64,000 bases of DNA from Oscillatoria sp. SIO1A7 (GCA_010672965.1 JAAHFN010000034.1:1-64000); one strand, 5' to 3'; numbered from the stretch's first letter, positions 5,349 through 60,741 are shown. Translations and numbers: made by a program. The notes: a model not told the origin generated them from the sequence alone.

Positions 5349-5502
5349 TATAGCGTTTCTCAAATAAGTGTAATGAACAATCGCCTTGGAGGGCTTAGGG
5401 GCGACAGCATCCCCAAGACAATCTCGGCGACCCGAACGACAACCCCCGTAGTGGGATGCGCGGGCCCCAGATAACCTCACATTAATTTTAGAAATGCTAT
5501 AT
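5349..5502. mobile_element. MITE family A copy, orientation 1 (TATAGCGTTTCTCAAAT inverted repeats around a GGGGCGACAGCATCCCC...GGGATGCG hairpin core)
   Basis: Shares its termini and core with the copies at 14996-15148, 23371-23507 and 42151-42303. Confidence 0.6.
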
Positions 5503-8645: not shown

Positions 8646-10754
8646 ATGATGAAAGAAAAATTTAACCGAAAGAGCAAAGAAGGAACCTATAGACTTCGGA
8701 GGCGGCGCAAAAGCCCGATCTCTACAGCGAGAAAAGACGATCTCTCTCGCCGATTGCGCTGGGCTTATCTGCGCAGAAGGTCCGGTGGAATAGGCATATC
8801 CCCTGGGGGAGAAGGGTCCGTTACAGGTCTTGGGCTATTGGAGAATCAAGAAGAATCCACAACCGAGGCTAAGGGTCCCAAGAAGCAGCCCAAAAATGTG
8901 GGTCGAGTAGTGGGGCAATGTCTAAGATTTATTTGGAAATGGCCCCTTTGGTGGTTTGCTCTGCTAGCGATTTGCAGTGGGGTTGGCGCGATCGCCTTGC
9001 AAAGATTGCTGACTATGCCGCCACAGACTGACTGCGAAACCCTCTCTGCAAATTCTCTGGATGGGGACCATCTCTATTGCGCCAATGCAGCCGCCAAGTC
9101 AGGGGAATTGGAAAAACTGATAGCGGCTATAGATTTGGTAGAAGGGTGGCCGGAGGACCACCCCCTGCGCGGCCAGGCACAAAGCCTGATGGGAGAATGG
9201 GCGAAAATGATGGTGGATATCGCCGATAAGAAATTTAATGGAGGCGATCGCTCTGAGGCAATGGAGATTGTGGCTAAAATCCCGGAGAAATCCCCCGGTT
9301 ACGAGCGCTTAATGAATAAGGTGGCAACCTGGGAAGGAGATTGGGATCGAGGTAAAGATATCTACAACGACGCCCAATATGCTTTGAAAAATAAGTCTTG
9401 GTCAGAAGCAAACAAGCACGCTAGGGAACTGTTGCTAGTCGATAATGCCTACTGGCGCACGGTGCGCTACGGTAAGCTCAAAGAGCAAATCGATAGGGAA
9501 GAGAAAGCTTGGAAAAAGCTGGAAAGCGCCCGGTATTATGCCAGTTGGGGCAGGGTGGAAGATCTGGTGTACTCCATCGACGAAGCCAGACAAATAGACC
9601 CTAGCACCTATACTAAAGCAGAGGCAGAAAAAGATGTGACAAAATGGAGCCAGCAATTGCTCGATATGGCTCAAAAACAATGGAAAAATGGAGATATGAA
9701 AAAAGCGATCGCCGCTGCAAATTGGATTCCTCCAGACTTGTCCATCCAGAGCGAGGCGGAAAACTTGAAGACTGTAATGCAGGCGGTGGCGCTGGTCGAG
9801 AATGATTCTCCTACGGCAGATCCGACGGAACGCCTATTTTCTTTTTGGCAAGCCCAAGCTTCTCTGGGCAAAATCGACTCGGAAAGCCAGATATACGAGC
9901 AAGCCCAAGAGTTGCAGGCTTCCTGGGAGGAACAAATACAAGACCTAGTACAGCTGCAAATGGCTAATTTAACTGCTAGTTTTGCTCACCCGGTCGCTCT
10001 GAAATTGGCTATAGACCAAGCAGAGATGATAGAGATGGATAGACCCAGACGGATTCAGGCTCAAACTCTTATTGCTGAATGGCGCAAGGAAATTCAAAAA
10101 ATTGAAGACCGCAGCTATTTGGCGCAAGCAAGAAGCTTGGCCTCCTCGGAGACAATTGAAGGGTATAAGGCGGCGATCGCTCTTGCTAGTAAGGTGGAGC
10201 TGGGACGACCTCTGCGCATAGAAGGGCAAACTCTAATAGCCGAATGGAAAAAACGGGTAGAAACAATAGAAGATAAACCTATCTTGGAGAAAGCTCGCTC
10301 CCTGGCAAAAGAAGGCAATCTCAAAGAGGCTGTGGAGACTGCAGAAAAGATTGGCCCCGGTCGGGCGCTGTACGAAGAGGCTGGCAATGAAATCTCTAAG
10401 TGGGTTGCCAAAATCCAAATTGCTGAGGATAGACCAATTCTAGACGAAGCCACATCCCTGGCAGCTCGAGGATTGCTGCAAGATGCTATAGACACTGCTT
10501 ATCAGATTGGCTCCGGTCGCGCTCTGTATAGCGAAGCTCAAGATGCAATCTACCGCTGGGAGGCACAACTTAGTGCAATCCGGGCTCGGGAAGCTGCTGC
10601 CCAACGTGCTGCTTACGAACGGCAAACAACAACTTACTATCAACAGTCGGAACCCTTCTATACCCCACCGGAACCGGTCTATACTCCACCCGCACCAGCT
10701 TATATTCCACCACCCGCTTATATTGCACCACCCGCTTATACTCCCCCAGAATAG
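8646..10754 (+). CDS. Repeat-containing membrane-anchored protein with a proline-rich C-terminal tail
   Basis: Basic N-terminus, one TM helix (WPLWWFALLAICSGVGAIAL), four roughly 35-aa internal repeats (RP.RI.AQTLIAEW....I..IEDR..L..A.SLA; GRALYEEA...), and an (A/P)PAYxPP tail. Confidence 0.55.
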   Translation: MMKEKFNRKSKEGTYRLRRRRKSPISTARKDDLSRRLRWAYLRRRSGGIGISPGGEGSVTGLGLLENQEESTTEAKGPKKQPKNVGRVVGQCLRFIWKWPLWWFALLAICSGVGAIALQRLLTMPPQTDCETLSANSLDGDHLYCANAAAKSGELEKLIAAIDLVEGWPEDHPLRGQAQSLMGEWAKMMVDIADKKFNGGDRSEAMEIVAKIPEKSPGYERLMNKVATWEGDWDRGKDIYNDAQYALKNKSWSEANKHARELLLVDNAYWRTVRYGKLKEQIDREEKAWKKLESARYYASWGRVEDLVYSIDEARQIDPSTYTKAEAEKDVTKWSQQLLDMAQKQWKNGDMKKAIAAANWIPPDLSIQSEAENLKTVMQAVALVENDSPTADPTERLFSFWQAQASLGKIDSESQIYEQAQELQASWEEQIQDLVQLQMANLTASFAHPVALKLAIDQAEMIEMDRPRRIQAQTLIAEWRKEIQKIEDRSYLAQARSLASSETIEGYKAAIALASKVELGRPLRIEGQTLIAEWKKRVETIEDKPILEKARSLAKEGNLKEAVETAEKIGPGRALYEEAGNEISKWVAKIQIAEDRPILDEATSLAARGLLQDAIDTAYQIGSGRALYSEAQDAIYRWEAQLSAIRAREAAAQRAAYERQTTTYYQQSEPFYTPPEPVYTPPAPAYIPPPAYIAPPAYTPPE

Positions 10755-14995: not shown

Positions 14996-15148
14996 TATAG
15001 CGGGTCTCAAATTGATGTGAGGTGTCTGGGGCGAAGCATCCCAATATGAGAGTTGCCATTAGGAGCCCCGAGATTGTCGCTCGTGATGCTGTCGCCCCTA
15101 CGTTTCTAGGACTCGATACTTTATTACACTTATTTGAGAAACGCTATA
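14996..15148. mobile_element. MITE family A copy, orientation 2, immediately after the sseA stop
   Basis: TATAGCGGGTCTCAAAT...GGGGCGAAGCATCCC...GATGCTGTCGCCCCTAC...ATTTGAGAAACGCTATA. Confidence 0.65.
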
Positions 15149-15163
15149 TTTTTGACTAGATAA

Positions 15164-16255
15164 TTAAACGGTCTCGTAGCGACCCAACAAGAGACACTCT
15201 ACCAATCCGTCGCTTGTTTCTTGCCCTAGAAATCTCTGGGGGAAATCATTGACAATGCGGCGGCAGCGGTTAATGAATGCTCTAGCCCAATGTTCCAACT
15301 GTTCCTGCTCCCAACTGTTCAAGGTTGCATCTCTGGCACCTCTAAAAATCATTTTTCCAGAGGATAGGATTTCAAATTTGTCTAACCATTCTGCCTCCGG
15401 GCGGCTTGTCTTCCAGTAATGCAGTACCACCCGCATTCCCAAGTAGCGGTGCGCCAGCTCGCTGAGTCGGTTTAAGGCTGACAAATATTCGGCCAAAGTC
15501 GCCTCTGCCTCTGAGTCTAGTTCTGAGCGCGAAGCCAAAAGACGCAAATGGGAATTCTTTCCCAGGCTCTTGAACTGCAAGGGCGAAGGATTGAAAGGCG
15601 GCGGGTTGCCGGAGTTTACACTACGAGCTTCCTCAAGAATGCTTGTGTTTGCTTCGGGCCGTTGTTCTCGCTGGGCTTCCGGTTCCCAAACCCAGATAGC
15701 ATAGCCTTTTGCTGTCTGGGTTATTACTACGCGATCGCCCCCCCACTCCAGCTTGGCTTTAGCTGCTAGGGCTTTCTTTATGTTTGGAAAACTTCGAGCA
15801 AAACTGTAATGTTTCTTATCTATCGCAATCGCAGGCAAGCGTTCTGTCAGATTTGGGATGCGTATATAGCAGGTTTCGTATTCGTCGCGATAGAGAAAAA
15901 TACCTTTGGGAGCCGAGACTAAAGACAGCGCCTCTAGATCTATAAGCTCCTCCTCGGACCGGGGAGGTTTTTCCCCAGTAGATTGGTCGCTTGCTCTGGC
16001 TTCTTCTTCCAGAGCATCGGCGATCGCTTCTAGCTTTTTCGCCTGCTTTCTTAGCGATATTGCATATTCAAGCAATTTATCCCTCATTTTTCTAGCATTA
16101 CCTTTAGTAATGCGTCTGGATTGGTTAGTTAGGTTAGAGCCTTGACTGATTCTTAGCTTCAATTTTGCCAAAACAAGATTAAAACCCACATTCCGCAGGT
16201 TGAAAAAAACATCAATTTTTAGCTTAAATTCCCTCCAGGCTTGGGTGGAGAGCAT
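15164..16255 (-). CDS. hypothetical protein
   Basis: 363-aa ORF with coding-like composition; no motif recognised. Confidence 0.5.
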   Translation of the reverse strand: MLSTQAWREFKLKIDVFFNLRNVGFNLVLAKLKLRISQGSNLTNQSRRITKGNARKMRDKLLEYAISLRKQAKKLEAIADALEEEARASDQSTGEKPPRSEEELIDLEALSLVSAPKGIFLYRDEYETCYIRIPNLTERLPAIAIDKKHYSFARSFPNIKKALAAKAKLEWGGDRVVITQTAKGYAIWVWEPEAQREQRPEANTSILEEARSVNSGNPPPFNPSPLQFKSLGKNSHLRLLASRSELDSEAEATLAEYLSALNRLSELAHRYLGMRVVLHYWKTSRPEAEWLDKFEILSSGKMIFRGARDATLNSWEQEQLEHWARAFINRCRRIVNDFPQRFLGQETSDGLVECLLLGRYETV

Positions 16256-28507: not shown

Positions 28508-29284
28508 CTACAGATCGTCAAGATTAATTCCTTGTCGCCGCAGTATTTCTTCTAGTGCCTGTACCCGAGCGATCGCCTCACTAGCTTGCTCTTGGGCTTG
28601 TTGTTTTTCCTCCTGGGTCTGTTGTAATTGCTCCTGAAGCTGTTCTTTTTCCTCCTGGGCCAGTTGTTTTTCTGCCTGAGCCAGTTGTTTTTCCGCCTGG
28701 GCCTCTCGTACTTGCTGCTTTAACTCCACAGAGGTTAAAAAGCGCTCCCCCTCCGGGTCATATAGCTGCAGAGATTTCTCTGTCATCTCGAACCGTATTC
28801 CCAAAAGCGGAGATATCCAGCCATTCATTTGCTCTATGGCCTTCAACCTTCCTCCCTCTCTTTGATATCCCGTCAACTTTAATCTATCTGGGTCGTAGAT
28901 ATAATATTCTTCTACCCCGTGACTCTGATAGAATCGCAGTTTATCCGACATCTCAGAGGAGGTATTGCTTGGAGACAGGATTTCAAACGCTACCTGGGGA
29001 GCAATGTCCTCTTCTAGCCATTGCTTATACGAGCCTCGCCTTCCCTTCGGCCGCCCAAATGCTACCATCACGTCCGGCGCTTGGCACTTTCTTGAACCTT
29101 CTGTTGGATACCAGAGCAAATCCCCGGCTATAAATACGTTGGCAACCGCAGCAAATATAATTTCTAAGTTTTCCTTGATTATTACGATCCATTTATACTG
29201 TTCTGTATTGTCTGACATTGGCTTGCCGTCGCTGTCTGGATAGACTATCTCTGGTTTTTGGTTTGCTTCTAGTTGTTGTACCAT
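28508..29284 (-). CDS. Uma2-family (DUF820) PD-(D/E)XK endonuclease, copy 1
   Basis: PDVMVAF...APQVAFEILSPSNTSSEMSDKLRFYQSHGVEEYYIYDP Uma2 core; C-terminal Q/E/K coiled-coil tail. Confidence 0.8.
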   Translation of the reverse strand: MVQQLEANQKPEIVYPDSDGKPMSDNTEQYKWIVIIKENLEIIFAAVANVFIAGDLLWYPTEGSRKCQAPDVMVAFGRPKGRRGSYKQWLEEDIAPQVAFEILSPSNTSSEMSDKLRFYQSHGVEEYYIYDPDRLKLTGYQREGGRLKAIEQMNGWISPLLGIRFEMTEKSLQLYDPEGERFLTSVELKQQVREAQAEKQLAQAEKQLAQEEKEQLQEQLQQTQEEKQQAQEQASEAIARVQALEEILRRQGINLDDL

Positions 29285-29487: not shown

Positions 29488-30306
29488 CTACAGCTCCTCA
29501 AGATTAATTCCTTGTCGCCGCAGCATTTCTTCTAGTGCTTGTATCCTGGATATGGCCTCAGTGGCTTGCTCCTGGGTCTGTTGTAATTGCTCCTGAAGCT
29601 GTTGGGCCTGCTCCTCTGCTACAGTCGCTCTTTCCTGGGCTTGTTGTTTTTCCTCCTGAGCCTGTTGTTTTTCTGCCTGGGCCTGTTGTTTTTCCGCCCG
29701 AGCCTGTTGGGCTTGCTCCTCCGCTGCGATCGCTCGTTCCTCTAATTCCACAGAGGTTAAAAAGCGTTGCCCGTTTGGGCGATATAGCTCCAGAGATCCC
29801 TTTGTCATCTCGAACCGTATTCCCAAAAGCGGAGATATCCAACCATTCATTTGCTCTATGGCCTTCAACCTTCCTCCCTCTCTTTGATATCCCGTCAACT
29901 TTAATCTATCTGGGTCGTAGATGTAATACTCTTCTACCCCGTGAGCTTGATAGAATCGCAGTTTATCCGACATCTCAGAGGAGGTATTGCTTGGAGACAG
30001 GATTTCAAACGCTACCTGGGGAGCAATGTCCTCTTCCAGCCATTGCTTATACGAGCCTCGCCTTCCCTTTGGCCGCCCAAATGCTACCATCACGTCCGGC
30101 GCTTGGCACTTTCTTGAACCTTCTGTTGGATACCAGAGCAAATCCCCGGCTATAAATACGTTGGCAACCGCAGCAAATATAATTTCTAAGTTTTCCTTGA
30201 TTATTACGATCCATTTATATTGTTCTGTATTGTCTGACATTGGCTTGCCGTCGCTGTCTGGATAGACTATCTCTGGTTTTTGGTTTGCTTCTAGTTGTTG
30301 TACCAT
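29488..30306 (-). CDS. Uma2-family (DUF820) PD-(D/E)XK endonuclease, copy 2 (diverged C-terminal coiled coil)
   Basis: Identical to copy 1 over the N-terminal roughly 170 aa; the tail has a different number and sequence of QAQ/EKQ repeats. Confidence 0.8.
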   Translation of the reverse strand: MVQQLEANQKPEIVYPDSDGKPMSDNTEQYKWIVIIKENLEIIFAAVANVFIAGDLLWYPTEGSRKCQAPDVMVAFGRPKGRRGSYKQWLEEDIAPQVAFEILSPSNTSSEMSDKLRFYQAHGVEEYYIYDPDRLKLTGYQREGGRLKAIEQMNGWISPLLGIRFEMTKGSLELYRPNGQRFLTSVELEERAIAAEEQAQQARAEKQQAQAEKQQAQEEKQQAQERATVAEEQAQQLQEQLQQTQEQATEAISRIQALEEMLRRQGINLEEL

Positions 30307-36697: not shown

Positions 36698-38251
36698 CTA
36701 GAAATCAAAATAAATATAGGGGGTGCTGTTTTCTGGGGCGAAGAGCAAGACTGCAAAAAAGCAGAGGGGAACTAGGAGTATTTTTATCGGCCAATTTAGC
36801 TGTAGCTTGAAAACTTTATGGAAGAGATAGGAGCATCCCATCAATGCTGCTATTATTATGAGAAGCAAGCATAGCTCGAATGGCATGAGACCGAGAGTTT
36901 CTATATAGATTTTCTGGGTAAATTGAACGTCAGGCGATCGCCCCCATAAATGCTGTATGACCCAACCGGATTGTTTGAGGTCGGGGAGCCGGAAGACAAT
37001 CCAAGAGAGAAAGACCATATTTTGAGTGAGCAGCCAAGCGACAATTGTGCCGAGGTAACTCTGCCACCAGCGATCGATCTGGCTGAAGCGCCCGGAAATA
37101 GTATCGACAAGTCGGTGAACTACTAAAGCTATTCCATGCAGAGCGCCCCAGACGATAAAGCCCCAAGCCGCTCCGTGCCAGATGCCAGCAACTAACATTA
37201 CTATTGCTAAGTTCAGGCAAGTTATGGCCAATCCTTTGCGAGAGCCACCTAGAGGAAAATAGAGGTAGTTTCGCAACCAATCTCCCAAACTGATATGCCA
37301 CCGACGCCAAAACTCGGCAATGCTGGTGGTAAAGTAAGGAAAGTCAAAGTTTTGCGGTAGTTTGAAACCGAGCAAGAGGGCGCTGCCGAGGGCAATATCT
37401 ACATAGCCGCTGAAATCTAGATAGAGTTGCAATCCGTAAGCAAAGGTCGCTAGCCGCAGGTCGCCGCTACCCGCCCGCTCCAAGTTGTCGAAGCAGAGGT
37501 TGACAAACTGGGCGAGGCGATCGGCTACGATGCCTTTTTTTATAGCTCCACAAGCAATTAACCACAATCCCTCTACCAACTGATGCGAAGCCGGGAAATG
37601 CAGGGTTTTCAGTTGTCGGATAAAGTTATGATAGCGGGCAATAGGACCGGAAAGCAGTTTGGGAAAAAAGAATTTGTAAACCGCAAATTTAAGGAAATTC
37701 TGGCTGGGAGGCGCGCCTCGATAAACGTCAACGAGGTAGGAGATACATTCAAAGCTAAAAAAACTGATTCCCAAAGGAGGTTTAATATTATCCCCATACC
37801 AGCGAGCAAGTTCTAAGGCAGCAGGAGAATCGAGGATGTTGCCGGCGACAGTTAAGAAGAAGGGAACGTATTTAAAACCCAAGAGTAGGAATATATTGAA
37901 GATTATACCCAGACAAAATAAGGCGAGGTAACGAGAATTCCAAGTTTCTTGAGGATTGGTTAGAGATGAGGACGAGTTTGGATCCTCTAAGTCTGACTGC
38001 CTGGGTTGGCGATTTTTGCTAATCCCCAGCCCTAGATAGAAGTTAATCGAGGTGCCGAGTAAAAGCAGGGGGATATATTTAATTTGTAGGGAGGCATAGA
38101 ATATTAAGCTGGCGATGAGTAGTAAGATAAGGCGCGATCGCTGCTTTTGTGCCGACCAGTATGCCAGGAGCAGGCCGGACAGGAAAAGGCCATAAAGAAT
38201 TGAGATAAAGGTCACTTTAGAATTGGGAATTGGGCATGGGGCATTGGGCAT
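36698..38251 (-). CDS. MBOAT-family membrane O-acyltransferase (AlgI/DltB-like); true start probably the GTG near 38215
   Basis: Multi-pass membrane protein; conserved His region WRRWHISLGDWLRNYLYFPLGGSR...GIWHGAAW typical of MBOAT. Confidence 0.8.
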   Translation of the reverse strand: MPNAPCPIPNSKVTFISILYGLFLSGLLLAYWSAQKQRSRLILLLIASLIFYASLQIKYIPLLLLGTSINFYLGLGISKNRQPRQSDLEDPNSSSSLTNPQETWNSRYLALFCLGIIFNIFLLLGFKYVPFFLTVAGNILDSPAALELARWYGDNIKPPLGISFFSFECISYLVDVYRGAPPSQNFLKFAVYKFFFPKLLSGPIARYHNFIRQLKTLHFPASHQLVEGLWLIACGAIKKGIVADRLAQFVNLCFDNLERAGSGDLRLATFAYGLQLYLDFSGYVDIALGSALLLGFKLPQNFDFPYFTTSIAEFWRRWHISLGDWLRNYLYFPLGGSRKGLAITCLNLAIVMLVAGIWHGAAWGFIVWGALHGIALVVHRLVDTISGRFSQIDRWWQSYLGTIVAWLLTQNMVFLSWIVFRLPDLKQSGWVIQHLWGRSPDVQFTQKIYIETLGLMPFELCLLLIIIAALMGCSYLFHKVFKLQLNWPIKILLVPLCFFAVLLFAPENSTPYIYFDF

Positions 38252-38409
38252 TGGGCATTGGGCCCCTACGCCCCGGAGGGCGGGCTACGCCTACGACTTG
38301 CCTCGGGATAAAATTGGGCATTGGGCATTGGGCATTGGGCATTGGGCAGGGGGTCTTACAAGGGTATGTTTTTTAGATTAGGCATTCTTGAGAGGTATCG
38401 ATTGAGGAC

Positions 38410-38646
38410 GTAGGGGCGACAGCATTCCCGAGACAGCTTTTGCAAATAGATCAAAAATATTGTATTGGAATGCTTCGCCCCAGAAACCGTAGGGGCGACA
38501 GCATTCCCGAGACAGCTTTTGCAAATAGATCAAAAATATTGCATTGGAATGCTTCGCCCCAGAAACCGTAGGGGCGACAGCATTCCCGAGACAGCTTTTG
38601 CAAATAGATCAAAAATATTGTATTGGAATGCTTCGCCCCAGAAACC
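38410..38646. repeat. Three tandem 79-bp copies of the MITE family A hairpin core (GTAGGGGCGACAGCATTCCCGAGACAG...TTGGAATGCTTCGCCCCAGAAACC)
   Basis: Three near-identical units with no spacers, so not a CRISPR. Confidence 0.85.
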
Positions 38647-38735
38647 TGTGCAGGAAGGAGGATTATTAATTATAAAATCTGAATTGATACAACTCTCAAT
38701 GCCCAATGCCCAATGCCCAATGCCCCATATTATAT

Positions 38736-38942
38736 TTACGCTTCTACATATTCGCATAGCGCTGTCGGTTCGGGAATGGGCAAGCCTTCTTCTTTTAATC
38801 CGTCTAAGTGAAATGCGATCGCTTCCTTTATCTGCTGTTGTACCTCTTTTATAGTTGCGCCTGTTGCCGCGCATCCGGGCAAGTCTGGAGCGTAAGCCGA
38901 ATAGTTACCTGCTGCTTTTTCAATTACGACTGCGTAGCGCAT
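38736..38942 (-). CDS. hicB: HicB-family antitoxin (UPF0150), no adjacent HicA
   Basis: MRYAVVIEKAAGNYSAYAPDLPGCAATGATIKEVQQQIKEAIAFHLDGLKEEGLPIPEP matches the HicB RNase-H-like fold consensus. Confidence 0.7.
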   Translation of the reverse strand: MRYAVVIEKAAGNYSAYAPDLPGCAATGATIKEVQQQIKEAIAFHLDGLKEEGLPIPEPTALCEYVEA

Positions 38943-38978
38943 TAGCTTTTCCCCTCCTCTTCTTTGCTGGCTAGCCAG

Positions 38979-41900
38979 TTACGGCCGTATCTGAATAGCG
39001 TTTTGAAAAAATTCAAGGTTTTTGTAATTGGACTCCGTCGTAGATTCTTCTGGCGTAACAATCGGTACACCTTGGTGCCAAGCTCGATAAAAGTCTGGAT
39101 AAGGTATATTTTCGGCACAGTACCAAGCAATCTCGTAACAGGCTTCGTTTTTTACCCTGCCTCTCACTAATTTGACGATTTGCACAAAATGGTTGATTGA
39201 CAAAATAATTTCTTTTAGGCTATCAGCCGCTAGCAAACCTACGAATTCATCTTCAGCAAATTTGGCCAACTGCACCAGAATGGATAAGGGCTGGAAATTA
39301 CCAGGGTCAATTTTAGCCAAGAGAGCGGCTCCTTGGCAACGGGTTAATTCATCTTCGGCAGACTCGATCCACTGCACCATAATGGATATAGCCCGGGGAT
39401 CCTCCATGTAAGTTTCCAGTAAGCTATCAGCCGCTTGGCTACGGGTGGGTTTGTTTTTAGCATAATTGCCCGCTCGCACCATAATGGATATGCTTTCGGA
39501 GTTCGCCGGGTCGATTTTCTCTAAGTTATAAGCTGCTATCTTACGGGTGAATTGATGTTTAGCAGATTTGACTAAATATACTAGAGCAGATTTGGCCTGG
39601 AAACTGCCCGCACCAATTTTCCCCAGGCTCTCAGCTGCTTGCAAACGGGTAGATTCATTTTTAGCATACTGGAGCAACTGCACAATAGCAAGTATGGCTT
39701 TGGGGTTTCCCACGCCAATTGCTCCCAAGCTATAAGCCGCTTGTCTACGAGTGTCTTCATCTTCAGCAGAATTGAGCCATTGCACCATAGCAGATATGGC
39801 TTCTGGGTTCCCCTCACCAATTTTACCCAATTCATAAGCCGCTTTCTTACGGATGGATTCATTTTCATCAGAATTTAGTAATTGCACTAGAGCAGATATA
39901 GCTCTTTGAGTATCAGTTTCCTCCAAAGCAATTCTCGCTCCGTTCTCAATATCGTCATATTTCCGGTTACCAGTAAAACCCCACTCAAATAACTGCTTGA
40001 CAATCTCATTCGCTCTTCGGCATTGCTGGAATTCCGCAATACCGGCGGCTGCTAAAAAATAGGCTCTATATTTATAAAAGTCATTGCACTTATCCTCAAA
40101 ACTCACCAATGCCTCGATAAATTGCTCCTTTTCTTCCTGCAGCACGTCGTCGCGTCCGAGCCAGAGCAAAATTACTTGTTTCCACTGGGGCTCGAAAATA
40201 CGATAATTGCCTCGCTCGGGTTCATCGGGAACGTGATTTAGGAAAAAATGCCAATCCTCGATCGCCGTTGCCGCAAAATATTCCTGAAACGTCGGATGAT
40301 AGAAAGCATAGACCTCTTCATCGGGACTTTCTGCGGCCAAGCCCACCTTATTGAGCCAGCCGAGTTGCGTTGCCAACTCGAATAAGCGATCGCTCTCTTG
40401 TCCCAAAACCCGAGATACCAAGCTCTGCTTCAGCCGAAAGCGAGACTCGTCTCTATCTATGGCTACCTTTGCCAATTCTCCTAAAGCCCGATTTAACTCA
40501 TCTCGTTCCGTCGGAGTGCTGGGAAATTCCCGGTCTTTCCAGCTATAAAACTTATCCACAAATCCTTTGTATAGTTTGGCCTTAGTATCCGGCAAGCCTC
40601 CTAGATCTTTCCACAAGCGCCAAGTGCTACAGAGCAGCGCCAAGCGCAGGGGATTTTTGGCCAAATCTTTGATGCGCCTTTTCTCCGATCGCTCCATCTC
40701 CCGTCGCAACTTCTCGCCCAACTCCGGCTCTCGCTGAAACCACTTGCCGATAAACTCGCCCACTTGGTTGCCAGTTTTCCCATCCCCATAGCTAAACTCC
40801 AAAGTGCGATAAATCTCGAATTCGCTCGCTAGAGCATTGCGGTTTGCTTCCCAGAGGTTGAGGCGACAAGTCAGCACTACTCGCCCTTGGCCGACCCAAC
40901 CGCTTAACTGCTTTTGAATTGCCCGAAGCGCTTCCAGGCGGCGAGCAGGCATTTCATCTATCCCATCCAAGAGCAGCCAGGCTTTCCCGTCACGAAACTT
41001 ATCTTTAAACTTGACTTTGACCCTTTCTGTTAAATCCGTAACTCGTTCCACCGCATTTTTCAACCATTTCTCCAGCAAATATTCTTCCAGAAAATCCCGG
41101 TTGGCCTCGGGTTCTGGCAAATCTGCCGCCGCAATTAAAATTGGCAAATATGTAGTATTGTCCAGAAGCCAAAAAGCAACTTTGCGGGCTAGGGTGGTTT
41201 TGCCCGCGCCCGGTTCGCCAATTATAGCAATCCGCTTGCCCTGACTTTTGCCCTTGCCCCCGCCAAGAATATCCGTTAAAAATTGCTGGTGTTGAAAGCG
41301 CTGTTTCTCTTCATACTCGGGCTCGTAGAGGCGCGACCCTTGCTCTGGAGAATACTCTTCCTCAAGCGAAGCTGTTTTTTTGCGCTCGACCAGAGCCAAG
41401 GGAACGTGTATTTCATCCAGCTCGAAGCAGTTTTCTTCGTACTGCATCAGCTCGTTAGTGGTCAAATGTTTTTGTTCTGCTAAAATTTGGCGGCAGATAT
41501 CGCGCCATTGGATTGCTGGTTCCGGCTCGCCGCTAACTTCTGGCTGCGGCTCGGAACCTATATAAACGTTGTTAGCTTTTTTAAAGACGATGTTGTTATC
41601 GCCTTGTACATTTGCATTTTGGCTATCTTCGTTGTAATTACCGACGGGACCAATGGTGCGATCGATTGTATTAGCTGCCTCGGCCTTAATCTCCTTAATA
41701 CTTAACTTGCCCTCTTGGCCGAGAGTCTGGTTCTGACCTGGTAGCTGAGGTTGCTCGGCTATGCCAGTAGGAGCGATCGCCGTCATCATCTCGTATTCTT
41801 TTAGCAACAAGTTCAGAAAATCTCGCTGCTCTATCCCAACTAAATCTTTAATAGCGCTTAAAAACAATCCCAAAGCTTCTTGTTGGGAAGCCAAGCGCCC

Positions 41901-42089
41901 CCAAGCCTCCAAGTAGCTTACGATTCTGCTCGTCGCTTCAAATTGGGAACCAGACAGATCTATTTTGGGGGCTATTTCTCCGAGATCCGCCAAAGTCAAG
42001 ATATTCCGACGACCTTTCTCCGTCGCTAGCTCTGGCAATCTTTCGAGTAGGGCGATTAGTTGCTTGCGATGCTTATCAGACAGTTTCAT
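38979..42089 (-). CDS. STAND NTPase: N-terminal EAD1-type effector-associated domain, NACHT domain, C-terminal PBS-lyase-type HEAT repeats
   Basis: N-terminal roughly 100-aa helical domain (LSDKHRKQLIALLERL...IVSYLEAWGRL); Walker A IAIIGEPGAGKTTLARK; Walker B LLLDGIDEM; NACHT helical modules; about ten repeats of the pattern SIR..AAYELGKIG.GNPEAI.ALVQLL. Confidence 0.85.
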   Translation of the reverse strand: MKLSDKHRKQLIALLERLPELATEKGRRNILTLADLGEIAPKIDLSGSQFEATSRIVSYLEAWGRLASQQEALGLFLSAIKDLVGIEQRDFLNLLLKEYEMMTAIAPTGIAEQPQLPGQNQTLGQEGKLSIKEIKAEAANTIDRTIGPVGNYNEDSQNANVQGDNNIVFKKANNVYIGSEPQPEVSGEPEPAIQWRDICRQILAEQKHLTTNELMQYEENCFELDEIHVPLALVERKKTASLEEEYSPEQGSRLYEPEYEEKQRFQHQQFLTDILGGGKGKSQGKRIAIIGEPGAGKTTLARKVAFWLLDNTTYLPILIAAADLPEPEANRDFLEEYLLEKWLKNAVERVTDLTERVKVKFKDKFRDGKAWLLLDGIDEMPARRLEALRAIQKQLSGWVGQGRVVLTCRLNLWEANRNALASEFEIYRTLEFSYGDGKTGNQVGEFIGKWFQREPELGEKLRREMERSEKRRIKDLAKNPLRLALLCSTWRLWKDLGGLPDTKAKLYKGFVDKFYSWKDREFPSTPTERDELNRALGELAKVAIDRDESRFRLKQSLVSRVLGQESDRLFELATQLGWLNKVGLAAESPDEEVYAFYHPTFQEYFAATAIEDWHFFLNHVPDEPERGNYRIFEPQWKQVILLWLGRDDVLQEEKEQFIEALVSFEDKCNDFYKYRAYFLAAAGIAEFQQCRRANEIVKQLFEWGFTGNRKYDDIENGARIALEETDTQRAISALVQLLNSDENESIRKKAAYELGKIGEGNPEAISAMVQWLNSAEDEDTRRQAAYSLGAIGVGNPKAILAIVQLLQYAKNESTRLQAAESLGKIGAGSFQAKSALVYLVKSAKHQFTRKIAAYNLEKIDPANSESISIMVRAGNYAKNKPTRSQAADSLLETYMEDPRAISIMVQWIESAEDELTRCQGAALLAKIDPGNFQPLSILVQLAKFAEDEFVGLLAADSLKEIILSINHFVQIVKLVRGRVKNEACYEIAWYCAENIPYPDFYRAWHQGVPIVTPEESTTESNYKNLEFFQNAIQIRP

Positions 42090-42150
42090 CGTTAACCTCG
42101 ATCGCTATTCTTAATATAAGCGCTCCTTTTCCAGAAAGCACTGCGATCGC

Positions 42151-42303
42151 TATAGCATTTCTCAAATTGATGTGAGGTTATCTGGGGCGAAGCATCCCTA
42201 TAGGGAAATTCCCGTTTGGAGTGCCGAGATAGTCTTGGGGATGCTGTCGCCCCTACGCCCCTCAACCCGATCCGTTCATTACACTTATTTGAGAAACGCT
42301 ATA
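42151..42303. mobile_element. MITE family A copy, orientation 2, in the promoter region of the NACHT gene
   Basis: TATAGCATTTCTCAAATTGATGTGAGG...GGGGCGAAGCATCCC...GGGGATGCTGTCGCCCCTAC...ATTTGAGAAACGCTATA. Confidence 0.65.
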
Positions 42304-42519
42304 TTCAAAAATCAAATAGCCCTCGATTACTAGCTAGTTCTTCGGCAAAACTCAGAAAAACTTGACGGCGAGTCGCATTGAGGAATACGCTCGCCGTTGA
42401 TTGATATGGGTTAGGAGTGGCGTTCGGGGAGTTGAGGAACGGAAGGGTTGGGGAAGAGGGAGATGCCTTCCATCTCCTCATACTTCCGTCACCCTGATTT
42501 CCTTGCTCTATTTCAACTA

Positions 42520-42864
42520 TTATCTTTGAGGAGACAAAAGGCCCTGAGAACAAAGATTAGGTCGAGGATCGTTTATACCATGAAGTTTTCCACTGCATCC
42601 AGGCCCGTACTCTAACACAGTGTACTGAAATCCATATGGTGGATTATAAGACGAATTGAGGACGAACTGTCCAGCTAAAATCGGCCACTTTCCTCCACAA
42701 CTATTACATAAAACAGCTAATGCATTGGCAGGATAACCGAAATTGTTAGCTTGGCTAACATCAGTGGTTTTCATTTCGGTTTGTGGATCGTCAGCAAATG
42801 CATATGGTGTAAATCCGAATATTGCTATTGCCAATACGGCCATAACGACGATCAATTTCTTCAT
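42520..42864 (-). CDS. small secreted Cys-containing protein
   Basis: Signal peptide MKKLIVVMAVLAIAIFGFTPYAFA; mature part has Cys in CNSCGG, GCSGK and LCSQG. Confidence 0.45.
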   Translation of the reverse strand: MKKLIVVMAVLAIAIFGFTPYAFADDPQTEMKTTDVSQANNFGYPANALAVLCNSCGGKWPILAGQFVLNSSYNPPYGFQYTVLEYGPGCSGKLHGINDPRPNLCSQGLLSPQR

Positions 42865-43687: not shown

Positions 43688-43972
43688 ATGGAAATTACGA
43701 TTTCATTGCCAGATACAATAGCGCGTTGCCTAGAAGCGAAGTGGGGCGACTTAGAGCGTCGCTCCTTAGAAGCGCTCGTCTTGGAAGCTTATAGAGAAGG
43801 TTCGATTAGCGCGGGTAAAGTGCGAGAATTGCTGGGTATGAATACTCGGCTAGAAACCGATGCTTTTCTAAAAGCAAAAGGAATTCATTTAGCATACGAC
43901 GAGGCCGACTTTGAGGCAGATCGGCAAACTCACGAACAATTGCAACGAGAAGGAAAACTGAAAGTAAGATGA
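43688..43972 (+). CDS. UPF0175-family antitoxin-like protein
   Basis: 94 aa; its stop overlaps the start of the DUF3368-type PIN remnant by 4 bp (ATGA). Confidence 0.6.
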   Translation: MEITISLPDTIARCLEAKWGDLERRSLEALVLEAYREGSISAGKVRELLGMNTRLETDAFLKAKGIHLAYDEADFEADRQTHEQLQREGKLKVR

Positions 43973-44150
43973 TTATTATTTCAGATACTTATCCTATTTG
44001 TTATTTGCTATTAATTGGAGAAATAGAATTATTGTCTCAACTCTACGGTCAAGTGCTGATTCCTACAAAAGTCCAAGAGGAGTTGTCCGACAAGCGATCG
44101 CCTGCTATTGTTAAAAGTGCAATACAATACAATTCCCAATTCCCAATTCC
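43969..44150 (+). pseudogene. DUF3368-type PIN toxin, N-terminal fragment truncated by an STRR tract
   Basis: [39 protein letters not shown] is the N-terminus of a roughly 150-aa DUF3368 protein; the frame then runs into AATTCCC repeats. Confidence 0.5.
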
Positions 44151-44302
44151 CAATTCCCAATTCCCAATTCCCGATTCCCGATTCCCGATTCCCAATTCCC
44201 AATTCCTAATTCCCAAAAAGCCCGGTTTCTTCAAGAAACCGGGCTTTTATATTGCGCCCAAAAAAACGGTTTATCGAAAAAAACCGGTTTTTTATATTAG
44301 CT

Positions 44303-46210
44303 TTACTCAACCGTAACGGACTTAGCCAAATTACGGGGTTGATCCACATCCAAACCGCGACGGGCGGCGATATGATAAGCCAACAGTTGCAAGGGAATTA
44401 CCGATACTATCGGCGAGATTAACTCGTCAACATCTGGCACTGGCAAAATAGTATCGAAAACCTCCGCAGCTTCGGAAATATTTTTGGGAGTTACTCCGAT
44501 TAAGCGAGCATCTCGGGCTTTGGCTTCTTGGGCATTGCTGATGACTTTTTCATAGACGCTACCAGGCATAGCGATCGCCACCACCGGCACCTTATCATCC
44601 AACAACGCAATTGGTCCGTGCTTCATCTCCCCGGCGGGATACCCTTGGGCGTGAATATAGCTAATTTCCTTCAGCTTCAGGGCTCCTTCCAGAGCTATAG
44701 GAAAATTAATTCCCCGTCCCACAAAGACAAAATCCCGAGTATCCGCGAACCCGTGAGCAAACTCCTCAATTTGGCGCTCTTGACTGCTGAGAAACAGTTC
44801 TATTTGCCCGGGTAAATGGCGCAGTCCCGCGATAAGTTGCTCTATTTCCGACTCCGGCAAAGTCTGGCGTCGAGCGGCTAAATCAATTGCTAAGAAATAA
44901 AACGCCATCAATTGGGCGATAAAAGTCTTAGTCGCTGCTACTCCAATCTCAATTCCAGCCATAGTATCGATAATATGAGGAACCAGATGTCCCAGAGATG
45001 ACTCGGGTCGATTGGTAATACCCAGCATTCGGGGCCGGGAGGGTTCTGGCTGACCGGCACGCCGCTGTTGCTCCATTGCCAAAGCAGCTAGAGTATCTGC
45101 AGTTTCCCCAGACTGGCTAATGCCGATAGTCATAGTATTGGGGGTCAGAGGTGCTGGGGCGTAGCGAAATTCAGAAGCATATTCTATTTGAACGGGAATT
45201 CTGGCAAGTTTTTCTAGAATATATTTCCCTACCAAACCGGCGTGCCAGCTCGTACCGCAAGCCAGAATTTGGATTCGTTCCAAATTGGCATATAATTCTG
45301 GGGGCAAGCCGAGATTAACTGGCGTTTGTTCTTCTGCGGAGTCCGGTTTCCAGTCATCGTTTAAATAAGCATCCAAGCAAGCTCGCAATACTCCCGGTTG
45401 CTCGTATATTTCTTTGAGCATGAAGTGCTTGAAGCCTTGTTTCTCAACGACAACGGGATTCCAGTTGAGCAGGTGGGGCGTTTTTTTGAGGCGATCGCCT
45501 GCAAAGTTATAAACCTCTACGCCCAGGGGACTTAGTTTGGCCACTTCTCCATTTTCCAGAGGCAGTACCGCTCGGGTATGGGAGACTATAGCTGGCGTAT
45601 CGGAAGCGCAGAAAAATTCTCCTTGACCAAAACCAATAACCAGGGGAGCTTGTTGCCTAGCGACAATCAGCTCGTCGGGATAGTCCGCAGAGACTACCGC
45701 GATCGCAAACGACCCTTGAAGCATTAGTAGCGATCGTCGCACGGCATCCAAGAATTTAGAAGCATAAGCGCAGGCAGTATCTTGTGGCGTCTCTTGTTCT
45801 AAAAACTCGGCAATTAAATGGGGGATTACCTCCGTATCTGTTTCGGAGCTAAACTCGCGTCCTCGTTTTTTTAGCCCCTCTCGCAAATCGCGATAGTTTT
45901 CAATAATGCCGTTTTGCACCACTGCCACCCGTCCCGCCGTATCTCTATGGGGGTGGGCGTTGTGTTCCTCTGGTTTGCCGTGAGTGGCCCAGCGGGTATG
46001 TCCAATGCCAACCCCAGCCAGATTTTCCAACCCAACGAGCTTTTCTCGCAATCGGTAGAGTTTGCCCTTAGCTCGAATGCAAGTAATTTCTCCTTCCGAG
46101 ACTGTGGCTAAGCCCGCTGAATCGTAGCCCCGGTATTCCAGTTTTTCCAAACCTGCCAGCAAAAGTTCGCTCGCTGGTTGAGTGCCGATATAGCCAACAA
46201 TGCCGCACAT
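44303..46210 (-). CDS. glmS: Glutamine--fructose-6-phosphate aminotransferase (isomerizing)
   Basis: MCGIVGYIG N-terminal nucleophile; glutaminase domain plus two SIS domains; C-terminal KSVTVE. Confidence 0.92.
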   Translation of the reverse strand: MCGIVGYIGTQPASELLLAGLEKLEYRGYDSAGLATVSEGEITCIRAKGKLYRLREKLVGLENLAGVGIGHTRWATHGKPEEHNAHPHRDTAGRVAVVQNGIIENYRDLREGLKKRGREFSSETDTEVIPHLIAEFLEQETPQDTACAYASKFLDAVRRSLLMLQGSFAIAVVSADYPDELIVARQQAPLVIGFGQGEFFCASDTPAIVSHTRAVLPLENGEVAKLSPLGVEVYNFAGDRLKKTPHLLNWNPVVVEKQGFKHFMLKEIYEQPGVLRACLDAYLNDDWKPDSAEEQTPVNLGLPPELYANLERIQILACGTSWHAGLVGKYILEKLARIPVQIEYASEFRYAPAPLTPNTMTIGISQSGETADTLAALAMEQQRRAGQPEPSRPRMLGITNRPESSLGHLVPHIIDTMAGIEIGVAATKTFIAQLMAFYFLAIDLAARRQTLPESEIEQLIAGLRHLPGQIELFLSSQERQIEEFAHGFADTRDFVFVGRGINFPIALEGALKLKEISYIHAQGYPAGEMKHGPIALLDDKVPVVAIAMPGSVYEKVISNAQEAKARDARLIGVTPKNISEAAEVFDTILPVPDVDELISPIVSVIPLQLLAYHIAARRGLDVDQPRNLAKSVTVE

Positions 46211-59941: not shown

Positions 59942-60249
59942 GGAGTTCGGAGTTGCTAAAAGGAGTTGCCCGTGGAAGAACGAGGAAAGCTGTTGGGACG
60001 TGCTTACAGCTCCTTTGACCTCGCGTCCGCTTCTTCTAGCTTAACGTGGATTTTTCTTCTCGGGGGGGTGCATTTCAATTTTGTAATGGGATAGGAAAGC
60101 GATGTGGCTAGAGGTCCTTATAAGGGGACAAGGGGACAAGGGGCAGGGGGCAGGGGGCAGGGGGCTTGCAGAGGGCTTGGGGACAAGGGGACAAGGGGAC
60201 AAGGGGACAATGTTAGGGGCCATTAAATGGTCCGCTTTTTAGATTTGGC

Positions 60250-60560
60250 GTAGGGGCGACAGCATTCCCGAAACAGTCTTTGCTCATAGAGAAAACTTTG
60301 TACTGGAATGCTTCGCCCTAGAAACCCATGCAGCCGACTGATTGCCCTCTGGGGGATAGGACTCAGGAGGAGCAGCGGGGAGCAGTAGATCTCCCAAGCC
60401 CCCTGCCCCCAAGCCCCCCTGCTTTCCTCGGGGTATGTTTTTTATAATTTCCCTTTTTGGAGTTGCCGGCAAGCGGCATAAATGTCTGGGGCGAAGCATT
60501 CCAATACAATAATTTCCTTTAAGAAAAAAGTCTGTCTCGGGAATGCTATCGCCCCTACGC
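60250..60560. repeat. Inverted pair of MITE family A 79-bp core units (60250-60326 forward, 60485-60560 reverse) around a G/C-rich spacer
   Basis: GTAGGGGCGACAGCATTCCCGAAACAG...GGAATGCTTCGCCCTAGAAACC and its reverse complement. Confidence 0.7.
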
Positions 60561-60741
60561 CCTCAAGGGTACCCCTCAAAAATGCCAAATCTAAAAAACA
60601 TACCCTTGCTCCCAAGCCCCCTGCCCAATGCCCGATGCCCAATGCCCGATGCCCAATGACCAATGTCGGGCTCTTGTGCTATATTGAAAGATATGCTATT
60701 ATTAACGGTTGCCGTTCAAAAACCGCAAATATTCCCAATAT

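Follow-up and report, generated by a model that had tools for sequence, protein, structure and literature searches.

Gene and domain organization of the locus

The largest gene considered here (38979-42089, minus strand) lies in a 64,000-nt stretch of DNA from Oscillatoria sp. SIO1A7 (GCA_010672965.1, JAAHFN010000034.1:1-64000), hereafter termed the window, and encodes a NACHT-type STAND NTPase with an N-terminal adaptor domain and a C-terminal repeat array. The open reading frame (ORF) is real and intact, running uninterrupted over 1036 codons, and its 1036-residue product is a 100% match to protein NER37419.1 of the Oscillatoria sp. SIO1A7 metagenome-assembled genome (MAG), which sits on an 80,659-bp MAG contig of which 16.6 kb lie outside the window. 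As NER37419.1 is currently named "AAA family ATPase", a corrected annotation for it constitutes the practical gain of the analysis. Searches against Pfam, with all profiles scoring above their curated cut-offs, revealed the order EAD8 (an effector-associated domain, EAD), disordered linker, NACHT, seven HEAT repeats and NCC-H (NACHT C-terminal Cys/His). The features of the gene are listed below, with the AlphaFold2 confidence score (predicted local distance difference test, pLDDT) where it applies.

38979-42089, minus strand: whole gene, EAD8-linker-NACHT-HEAT(x7)-NCC-H STAND NTPase, 1036 aa (ORF list, Pfam, identical database protein)
41793-42074, minus strand: EAD8 adaptor, aa 6-99, predicted death-fold (CARD-like) helical bundle (Pfam and model)
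41520-41789, minus strand: low-complexity linker, aa 101-190, predicted disordered (pLDDT <50 over aa 101-189)
40788-41234, minus strand: NACHT nucleotide-binding domain (NBD), aa 286-434 (Pfam, invariant motifs)
41193-41219, minus strand: Walker A motif GEPGAGKTT, aa 291-299 (alignment)
40953-40976, minus strand: Walker B motif LLLDGIDE, aa 372-379 (alignment)
39990-40787, minus strand: helical and winged-helix part of the STAND module, aa 435-700 (orthologue identity, high pLDDT)
39192-39905, minus strand: seven 34-aa PBS-lyase-type HEAT repeats, aa 729-966, presumed ligand sensor (Pfam, 102-nt DNA period, repeat register)
39075-39146, minus strand: NCC-H domain, aa 982-1005 (Pfam PF22730)
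38979-39053, minus strand: unstructured C-terminal tail (pLDDT <50; frameshifted relative to the orthologue)

A full-length AlphaFold2 model, calculated with the family alignment as input, presents a mean pLDDT of 73, with values of 80-95 over the NTPase, winged-helix and HEAT parts and with disorder in the linker (aa 101-190) and in the last ~25 residues. Structural similarity search of this model against the PDB using Foldseek ranked human NLRP7 first (E 1.4e-8) and a bacterial STAND-TPR protein second; the other matches are HEAT/ARM proteins. As modelled, the protein is tripartite and shares the plan of an animal NOD-like receptor (NLR), comprising a death-fold adaptor, a NACHT switch and a HEAT sensor. 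An earlier note, made from the sequence alone, had described the product as an EAD1-NACHT-HEAT STAND NTPase; the NLR-like core of that description is upheld by Pfam, the Walker motifs and Foldseek, the number given to the EAD was wrong, and the NCC-H cap had been overlooked.

The NACHT switch

The NACHT profile (PF05729) matches aa 286-434 at 32.4 bits, a narrow margin over the cut-off of 26.7 (relatives within the family score 40-58 bits). In an alignment of 46 family members, in which residues were counted per column, G291, E292, P293, G294, G296, K297 and T299 of Walker A are invariant in 46/46 sequences. Residues D375, D378 and E379 of Walker B are likewise invariant, with position 376 occupied by G, A or S, and the same holds for the TCR-N sensor-1 region. 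A D[GAS]hDE Walker B signature separates NACHT from other STAND clades (Kibby et al.; Koonin & Aravind), and as the window protein fits this signature, its NTPase classifies as a NACHT with intact catalytic motifs. The two motifs on which the earlier note had relied, GEPGAGKTT and LLLDGIDE, are both present and invariant in 46/46 sequences; neither is degenerate on alignment, and the NACHT reading stands. The arrangement of the NBD followed by helical and winged-helix domains, which are modelled with a pLDDT of 80-95 over aa 260-700, supports a STAND fold. The helical and winged-helix part is the most conserved of the entire protein, displaying 92% identity to the orthologue at the metagenome locus L001.

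An EAD8 adaptor with a predicted death fold

The N-terminal domain (aa 6-99) is matched by EAD8 (PF19961) at 69.2 bits, with a cut-off of 27, over profile positions 2-96 of 96, and no match to EAD1 at E ≤ 1 occurs among the 25 best Pfam families listed. Assignment of this ~100-aa region to EAD1, as originally suggested, was rejected because the Pfam match is EAD8. The correction is of functional relevance, as EAD8 instead of EAD1 changes which partners are to be expected. EAD8 is located at the N-terminus of the NACHT protein, and most relatives place EAD8 alike.

The model of the isolated domain (pLDDT 88.6) is a six-helix bundle with death-fold topology. Its structural matches are found in CARD, DD, DED and PYD domains and include crystallised bacterial CARD-like domains, the CARDs of Dronc, caspase-1, NLRC4, NOD1, caspase-9 and Apaf-1, as well as pyrin and DED domains. 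EAD8 is predicted, on the basis of this model, to adopt a CARD-like death fold. At the sequence level, a profile of 30 EAD8 sequences retrieved no death-fold homologue at E ≤ 10 from all PDB sequences, and Pfam CARD, Death and DED gave no match on the NACHT protein. Sequence-level kinship of EAD8 to solved CARDs was dropped on account of the empty profile search.

EAD8 was classed as an effector-recruiting adaptor that acts homotypically: a core or sensor protein carries one copy and effectors carry others, whether their genes share its operon or lie at another genomic site (Kaur, Burroughs, Iyer & Aravind 2020, 2021). A HMMER search with aa 1-105 against 1.84 billion representative proteins returned 170 hits at E ≤ 1e-3, of which the 97 with a length of 190 aa or more are without exception matched by Pfam EAD8. 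The second domains identified in these 97 proteins are Trypsin_2 (16), nSTAND1 (7), FGE-sulfatase (5) and TIR_2 (5), followed by TPR and WD40, and many of the 97 present no second Pfam domain. The closest EAD8 sequences, 50-59% identical, belong to EAD8-STAND/trypsin-type operons. At locus L083, consecutive genes encode EAD8-Trypsin_2, EAD8-only and EAD8-nSTAND1-FGE proteins, with an EAD8-nSTAND1-WD40 gene three genes on, and the EAD8 loci L082 and L085 display a similar organization. An EAD8-trypsin gene was also reported beside an EAD8-STAND-FGE gene, at the DGR6 locus of Thiohalocapsa (2023 bioRxiv paper on targets of diversity-generating retroelements, DGRs). For the gene described here, no EAD8 partner was found on the orthologous contigs L001, L086 and L087, which are short and cover immediate flanks only. 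Protein searches yielded no EAD8 protein from SIO1A7 (the single-domain search gave 1 hit and the profile search 9 hits, all from elsewhere), and an EAD8 scan of metagenome contigs gave no match.

The NACHT-HEAT-NCC-H family and its adaptor slot

NACHT proteins are carried by 58% of cyanobacterial genomes. A search with the full-length protein identified 1755 relatives, dominated by filamentous cyanobacteria, and a scan of one genome per species identified 267, the best 80 of which are all cyanobacterial. The N-terminal region preceding Walker A was taken from 77 of these best 80 of 267 loci and scanned with Pfam. EAD4 occupies this slot at 43/77 loci, a helix-turn-helix (HTH) domain at about 5/77, EAD10 at 2/77, and CHAT and TRADD-N at 1/77 each; EAD8 occurs at 0/77. 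Family members in the databases additionally show a caspase or a nucleotide cyclase in this position, and they end in NCC-H, with or without NCAB1. The combination of EAD8 with this NACHT family was observed only in the 50%-identity cluster of the window protein itself, and neither EAD8 nor a HicB like that of the window was found within 8 kb at any of the 80 family loci. To judge from these domain matches, the family exchanges domains at its N-terminal slot, and the window protein is a rare recombinant of two catalogued modules, namely the EAD4-dominated NACHT-HEAT-NCC-H family and the EAD8 adaptor.

A fast-changing HEAT array between conserved neighbours

The C-terminal array is matched by HEAT_2 at 89.4 bits (cut-off 27.7) and by HEAT_PBS at 30.1 bits (cut-off 20.9), the Pfam span covering aa ~720-920. 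It comprises seven 34-aa units with the consensus xAISALVQLLNSAxxExTRxxAAxSLxKIxxGNS, which are apparent as a tandem period of 102 nt in the DNA and as paired helices in the AlphaFold2 model, and AlphaRep designs are the top PDB sequence matches of the region. The repeat type given in the earlier note, PBS-lyase-type HEAT, agrees with the HEAT_2 and HEAT_PBS matches, and its count of about ten is replaced by seven (aa 729-966). The array is followed by NCC-H (PF22730; 49.8 bits, cut-off 27; aa 982-1005), in which C984, C991 and H1005 are present and Tyr990 stands where 23/46 relatives have His; none of these four positions is invariant in the family.

Three orthologous metagenome loci allow rates of change to be compared along the gene. 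L001 comprises the small Cys-containing protein gene, NACHT, hicB and MBOAT, in this order; L086 comprises the small Cys-containing protein gene, the intergenic region and the 5' end of NACHT; and L087 comprises the 3' half of NACHT, a hicA pseudogene, hicB, MBOAT and DUF6930. Identities between the window and L001 are as follows.

EAD8: 81%
Linker: 77%
NBD: 91%
Helical and winged-helix part: 92%
HEAT array: 36%, with indels of whole 34-aa repeats
NCC-H: 69%
HicB: 67/68 residues
MBOAT: 91%
Small Cys-containing protein: 91%

The corresponding values between the window and L087 are given below.

NACHT aa 590-700: 95/110 (86%)
HEAT array: 190/283 (67%)
HicB: 66/68
MBOAT: 494/505
DUF6930: 489/508

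The number of HEAT repeats is seven in the window, eight in L087 and ten in L001. The HEAT array alters in sequence and in copy number much faster than the remainder of the gene and its neighbours. A stable switch joined to a fast-changing C-terminal sensor is a pattern known from tested bacterial NACHT proteins (Kibby et al.). The ratios of nonsynonymous to synonymous divergence (dN/dS) against L001, calculated according to Nei-Gojobori, are 0.33 for NACHT, 0.68 for EAD8 and 0.60 for HEAT. The divergence of the array is best described as repeat turnover or conversion, because dS is raised along with dN; a dN/dS of 0.6 with inflated dS does not demonstrate that the repeats are under positive selection.

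These data bear on the possibility that the protein monitors an endogenous state, its HEAT repeats binding a protein of the host, for instance a phycobiliprotein or a lyase substrate, and thereby controlling developmental or stress-related cell death, or signalling, in the filament. Such a role would accord with the HEAT_PBS match, with the weak matches to the CpcE and NblB models, with the housekeeping genes that surround the locus, and with the presence of a caspase-GUN4 protein in the same window, GUN4 conflict proteins of cyanobacteria having been proposed to monitor photosynthesis status (Kaur et al.; Kibby et al.). However, CpcE and NblB match the repeats at 16-27 bits with cut-offs of 300-330, denoting likeness at the level of the repeat only, and a sensor of a conserved host protein should not vary between seven, eight and ten repeats, at 36-67% identity, beside flanks that are 91-98% identical. 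Monitoring of an endogenous state appears an unlikely function for this protein.

The hicB remnant downstream and its junction with the NACHT gene

The gene is followed at a distance of 36 nt by a short hicB.

38736-38942, minus strand: hicB remnant, 68 aa, HicB N-terminal fold only (Pfam HicB_lk_antitox, PDB HicB3)

The HicB_lk_antitox profile matches at 47.7 bits over positions 1-65 of 123, the DNA-binding C-terminal domain being absent, and the PDB structure HicB3 is matched at E 1e-8. The gene is under strong purifying selection (pN 0.006, pS 0.085). No hicA was found in the window, in line with the orphan hicB that the earlier note had placed 36 bp downstream. In L087, positions 1508-1733, at the place of window positions 38943-38978, hold a hicA pseudogene between NACHT and hicB, which contains an in-frame TAA, presents GSDR in place of GSHR in its catalytic region, and matches Pfam HicA_toxin at 49 bits once the TAA is masked. 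Relative to L087, ~260 bp containing hicA were deleted in the window and in L001, and this deletion fused the 3' end of NACHT to the last ~25 nt of hicA. The NACHT stop codon in L001 overlaps the hicB ATG (TAATG) because the deletion exposed the old hicA-hicB junction.

An 8-bp indel close to position 39035, adjoining a HIP1-like site (ATCGCCAA in L001), puts the C-terminal tail of the window protein out of frame with that of L001. The alternative frame of the tail corresponds to the ORF 38942-39130, with a stop at the old hicA stop overlapping the hicB ATG, and the NACHT ORF of the window ends 36 nt earlier because the extra 8-bp deletion shifts the frame.

A functional NACHT-HicB pair, either a toxin-antitoxin-like module or a regulator-sensor module, could be proposed from the occurrence of hicB after NACHT in the window, L001 and L087, from the TAATG overlap in L001 and from the purifying selection on hicB. 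This proposal is, however, largely refuted by the L087 hicA pseudogene, which still separates the two genes, and by the HicB-like genes within 8 kb, which number 0/80 at the other family loci; furthermore, the L001 overlap is the old hicA-hicB junction laid bare by the ~260-bp deletion, and the NACHT ORF of the window stops 36 nt before hicB. Pairing of the two genes is considered highly improbable, and the orphan hicB is instead the relic of a decayed hicAB module and a bystander to NACHT.

The MITE, the promoter region and the small protein upstream

The region upstream of the NACHT gene contains a miniature inverted-repeat transposable element (MITE), a putative terminator and a small ORF.

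42151-42303: MITE insertion, element of 149 bp (42153-42301) with duplicated TA at both sides (inverted repeat, empty sites)
42365-42397, minus strand: GC-rich 14-bp hairpin followed by a U-rich tract, after the small-protein gene (fold -26.1 kcal/mol, z -4.7)
42520-42864, minus strand: small secreted-type protein, 114 aa from the MKKLIVV start; longest ORF to 42957 (ORF list)

The MITE has terminal inverted repeats of 15-17 nt (15-nt sequence TAGCGTTTCTCAAAT), and L086 holds the precise empty site TTTTTGAATA-GCGATCGC; the site is empty in L001 too. Further full copies with 77-83% identity are located at 5349-5501, 14996-15148 and 23370-23507, amounting to four full copies in the 64 kb, and partial copies occur at 60247-60269 and 60485-60566. 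Folded as RNA, the element forms one long hairpin (-61.7 kcal/mol, z -7). It is a small, multi-copy, TA-duplicating MITE devoid of coding capacity, and the position originally assigned to it, 42151-42303, is right to the base, as judged from the inverted ends, the TA duplication, the empty sites and the other copies. A tandem array lies beyond hicB at 38409-38646, where a 79-nt unit with ends like the MITE core (GGGGCGACAGCATYCCC ... GGAATGCTTCGCCCCAGA) is present in three copies (98% matches) bracketed by inverted ATTGGGC/CAATGCC heptamer arrays at 38222-38263, 38313-38348 and 38697-38725; L001 has two copies of the unit at the same place.

The MITE ends 61 nt before the NACHT ATG. A consensus scan called no promoter upstream of the gene, and the sole -10-like hexamer seen by eye (TATATT) lies downstream of the MITE. 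The hairpin at 42365-42397, whose sequence is unchanged in L001 and L086, is likely the terminator of the small-protein gene, which suggests that the NACHT gene has its own promoter between the hairpin and position 42090, an interval that now holds the MITE. The N-terminus of the small protein resembles a signal peptide, and the sequence contains four conserved Cys residues; the protein is also encoded in L086 and has no Pfam, NCBIfam or PADLOC match. A small secreted Cys-containing protein gene just upstream on the same strand had been anticipated, as confirmed by these properties, and it is simply syntenic with the NACHT gene. The neighbourhood had been regarded as unusual; it is mostly incidental, with hicB a relic, HicB found in 0/80 other family loci and the small protein syntenic.

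Proposed function and its weighing

Phage defence is an established function of bacterial NACHT proteins, whose listed adaptors include EADs (Kibby et al.). We favour, with moderate confidence, the view that the gene encodes the sensor and adaptor component of a cyanobacterial NLR-like conflict system acting in immunity or programmed cell death. The trigger bound by the HEAT array would be a protein of an invader or a host protein in a perturbed state; binding would lift autoinhibition, and the NACHT modules would oligomerise with NTP, clustering the EAD8 domains. Clustered EAD8 would then recruit a separately encoded EAD8-tagged effector via homotypic EAD8-EAD8 contacts. The effector would most likely be a trypsin-like peptidase, favoured because trypsin is the commonest identifiable EAD8 partner, and it would kill or arrest the cell. 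The sensor would act in trans, because the 39 kb to one side of the gene and the 22 kb to the other encode no EAD8 effector; it could supply an effector hub encoded at another genomic site, comparable to L083-type operons, where a single EAD8-trypsin serves several sensors. This mechanism would involve neither the MITE nor the hicB remnant nor the small secreted protein, which are neighbours of the gene. An antiphage role is presumed. A bolder proposal, which we advance tentatively and consider possible, is that of a genome-dispersed inflammasome-like network, with numerous sensors converging on a single effector, in which this lone CARD-like (EAD8)-NACHT-HEAT protein would signal in trans to an EAD8-protease hub used in common; the replacement of EAD4 by EAD8 would then represent natural rewiring that transferred a HEAT sensor between effector networks.

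Several observations weigh against a functional NLR-like sensor. Six-frame translation of the 64-kb window, which does not cover the rest of the genome, shows no second EAD-tagged protein and no second NACHT, in agreement with the earlier note, which had seen no cognate EAD-tagged effector there. The surroundings consist of housekeeping genes (glmS, acpP, fabF, tkt, ppc, hisD, MBOAT) and toxin-antitoxin remnants and do not form a defence island. PADLOC gives no NACHT or system match; the NCBIfam model of the antiphage NACHT EruA scores 36.6 bits with a cut-off of 1000, and DS8 falls likewise far below its cut-off. The literature searched contains no experimentally tested member of this cyanobacterial family. 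The HEAT dN/dS of 0.60 does not exceed 1, with an inflated dS (0.56 versus 0.14). In L086, a 1-kb Logan contig, a frameshift after EAD8 residue ~92 is accompanied by loss of the ~85-residue linker (560-1058); it may reflect a real pseudogene or variant, or an assembly error. Together with the frameshifted tail of the window protein, this change hints at relaxed constraint in the lineage.

It could consequently be argued that the gene is an orphaned, decaying sensor, a former NLR-like gene cut off from its effector, drifting to a pseudogene and with no current role. Besides the missing EAD8 partner in the window, the L086 frameshift with its lost linker and the 8-bp indel in the tail, this reading can draw on the higher dN/dS of EAD8 (0.68, versus 0.33 for NACHT), on the MITE that landed 61 nt from the start codon and on the demonstrably decayed hicAB module that adjoins the gene. 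However, the ORF of the window remains open over 1036 codons and retains all invariant family residues in Walker A, Walker B and sensor 1, and the NACHT part, 91-92% identical to L001 with a dN/dS of 0.33, is under purifying selection. The frameshifted tail is unstructured and lies beyond the last domain, and the L086 frameshift may be an assembly error in a contig of 1 kb. We give little credence to decay on these grounds, and a sensor and adaptor of a conflict system is retained as the preferred function.

Other features of the window

Further ORFs and repeats of the window are given below.

16799-19483, plus strand: 894-aa full-length homologue of the Major Vault Protein (MVP), with Vault repeats, Vault_2/3/4 and MVP shoulder far above Pfam cut-offs
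21159-22709, plus strand: 516-aa caspase (Peptidase_C14)-GUN4 fusion, a conflict or programmed-cell-death type of multicellular cyanobacteria, ~17 kb from the NACHT gene
28508-29284 and 29488-30306, both minus strand: adjacent paralogous genes of the Uma2 family (putative restriction endonuclease-like)
43688-43972, plus strand: UPF0175 antitoxin-like gene, overlapping the next ORF
43969-44316, plus strand: PIN-like ORF with a weak match to PIN-TPR-GreABC
8646-10754, plus strand (702 aa), and 15164-16255, minus strand (363 aa): long ORFs with no Pfam match at E ≤ 1e-5

Homologues of MVP in bacteria, cyanobacteria included, have reportedly been described (bioRxiv 10.1101/872010) and are still poorly understood. 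The caspase-GUN4 protein was considered as effector of the NACHT protein and rejected, as it carries no EAD8 and has no link to the NACHT gene. Uma2 genes also flank the EAD8 locus in L082. The pair at 43688-44316 looks like a VapBC-type module with a disrupted toxin; the C-terminal half of the PIN-like ORF consists of translated heptamer repeats, and the MBOAT ORF likewise begins with residues that stem from these heptamers. The cyanobacterial HIP1 octamer GCGATCGC is present in 83 copies in the window, and Rfam and tRNA scans of the window returned nothing.

Comparison with known systems

The components of the protein are established. The EAD-NACHT-repeat class, NCC-H and EAD8 are already published, each with a Pfam model, as is the homotypic-adaptor model, and as things stand the protein is an expected combination of catalogued domains in a NACHT-rich phylum. 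What is new here comprises the corrected annotation, the swap of EAD8 for EAD4, the predicted CARD-like fold of EAD8, the solitary arrangement and the series of 7, 8 and 10 repeats. The four near-isogenic loci, with 7, 8 and 10 HEAT repeats, are a resource with which to map the ligand-binding surface and its turnover.

The closest relatives are the cyanobacterial NACHT-HEAT-NCC-H proteins, which show 40-55% identity in the NACHT module (~800 residues), agree at every invariant residue, and share the HEAT array, the NCC-H cap and the cyanobacterial range (best 80 genome loci). They differ in that the family norm is EAD4 (43/77), whereas the window protein carries EAD8 (0/77), and in that some present an NCAB1 extension that it lacks. 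In the EAD8-STAND/FGE and EAD8-trypsin operons, as in the window protein, an N-terminal EAD8 precedes a STAND NTPase that bears a variable sensor, and the logic is that of a homotypic adaptor. In contrast, their NTPase is nSTAND1 or NB-ARC, combined with FGE, WD40 or TPR, where the window protein has NACHT with HEAT, and an EAD8-trypsin gene is adjacent in these operons, whereas none is present in the window.

Bacterial systems combining CARD-trypsin and NLR-like proteins were tested experimentally. The bacterial CARD-NLR-like systems to be compared are the Lysobacter gasdermin system (Wein et al.) and Caulobacter LypABC (Banks et al. 2026). EAD8 displays no sequence similarity to the CARDs of these two systems, and, unlike in them, the adaptor here occupies the N-terminus of the sensor and the gene is solitary. 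The validated antiphage STANDs (bNACHT01, other bNACHTs and Avs) also join a STAND/NACHT switch to a diversifying C-terminal sensor, although they mostly present fused enzymatic effectors or short C-termini, are proteobacterial and were tested in E. coli.

The animal proteins NOD1, NLRC4 and Apaf-1 present the same order of death-fold adaptor, STAND NTPase and repeat sensor, and the parallel extends to the structural matches with NLRP7 and with the CARDs of caspase-9 and Apaf-1. Their sensors are leucine-rich repeats (LRR) or WD40, whereas HEAT repeats are used here, and the likeness of the adaptors is confined to predicted structure. The NLR-like architecture was probably assembled independently of animals by domain shuffling. 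Were recruitment in trans to hold true, the locus would provide a compact natural case in which an adaptor wires an NLR-like sensor of bacteria to an effector encoded at an unlinked site, the bacterial counterpart of the CARD-CARD signalling of inflammasomes, and would show that the exchange of an adaptor of ~100 residues can connect a family of sensors to another effector.

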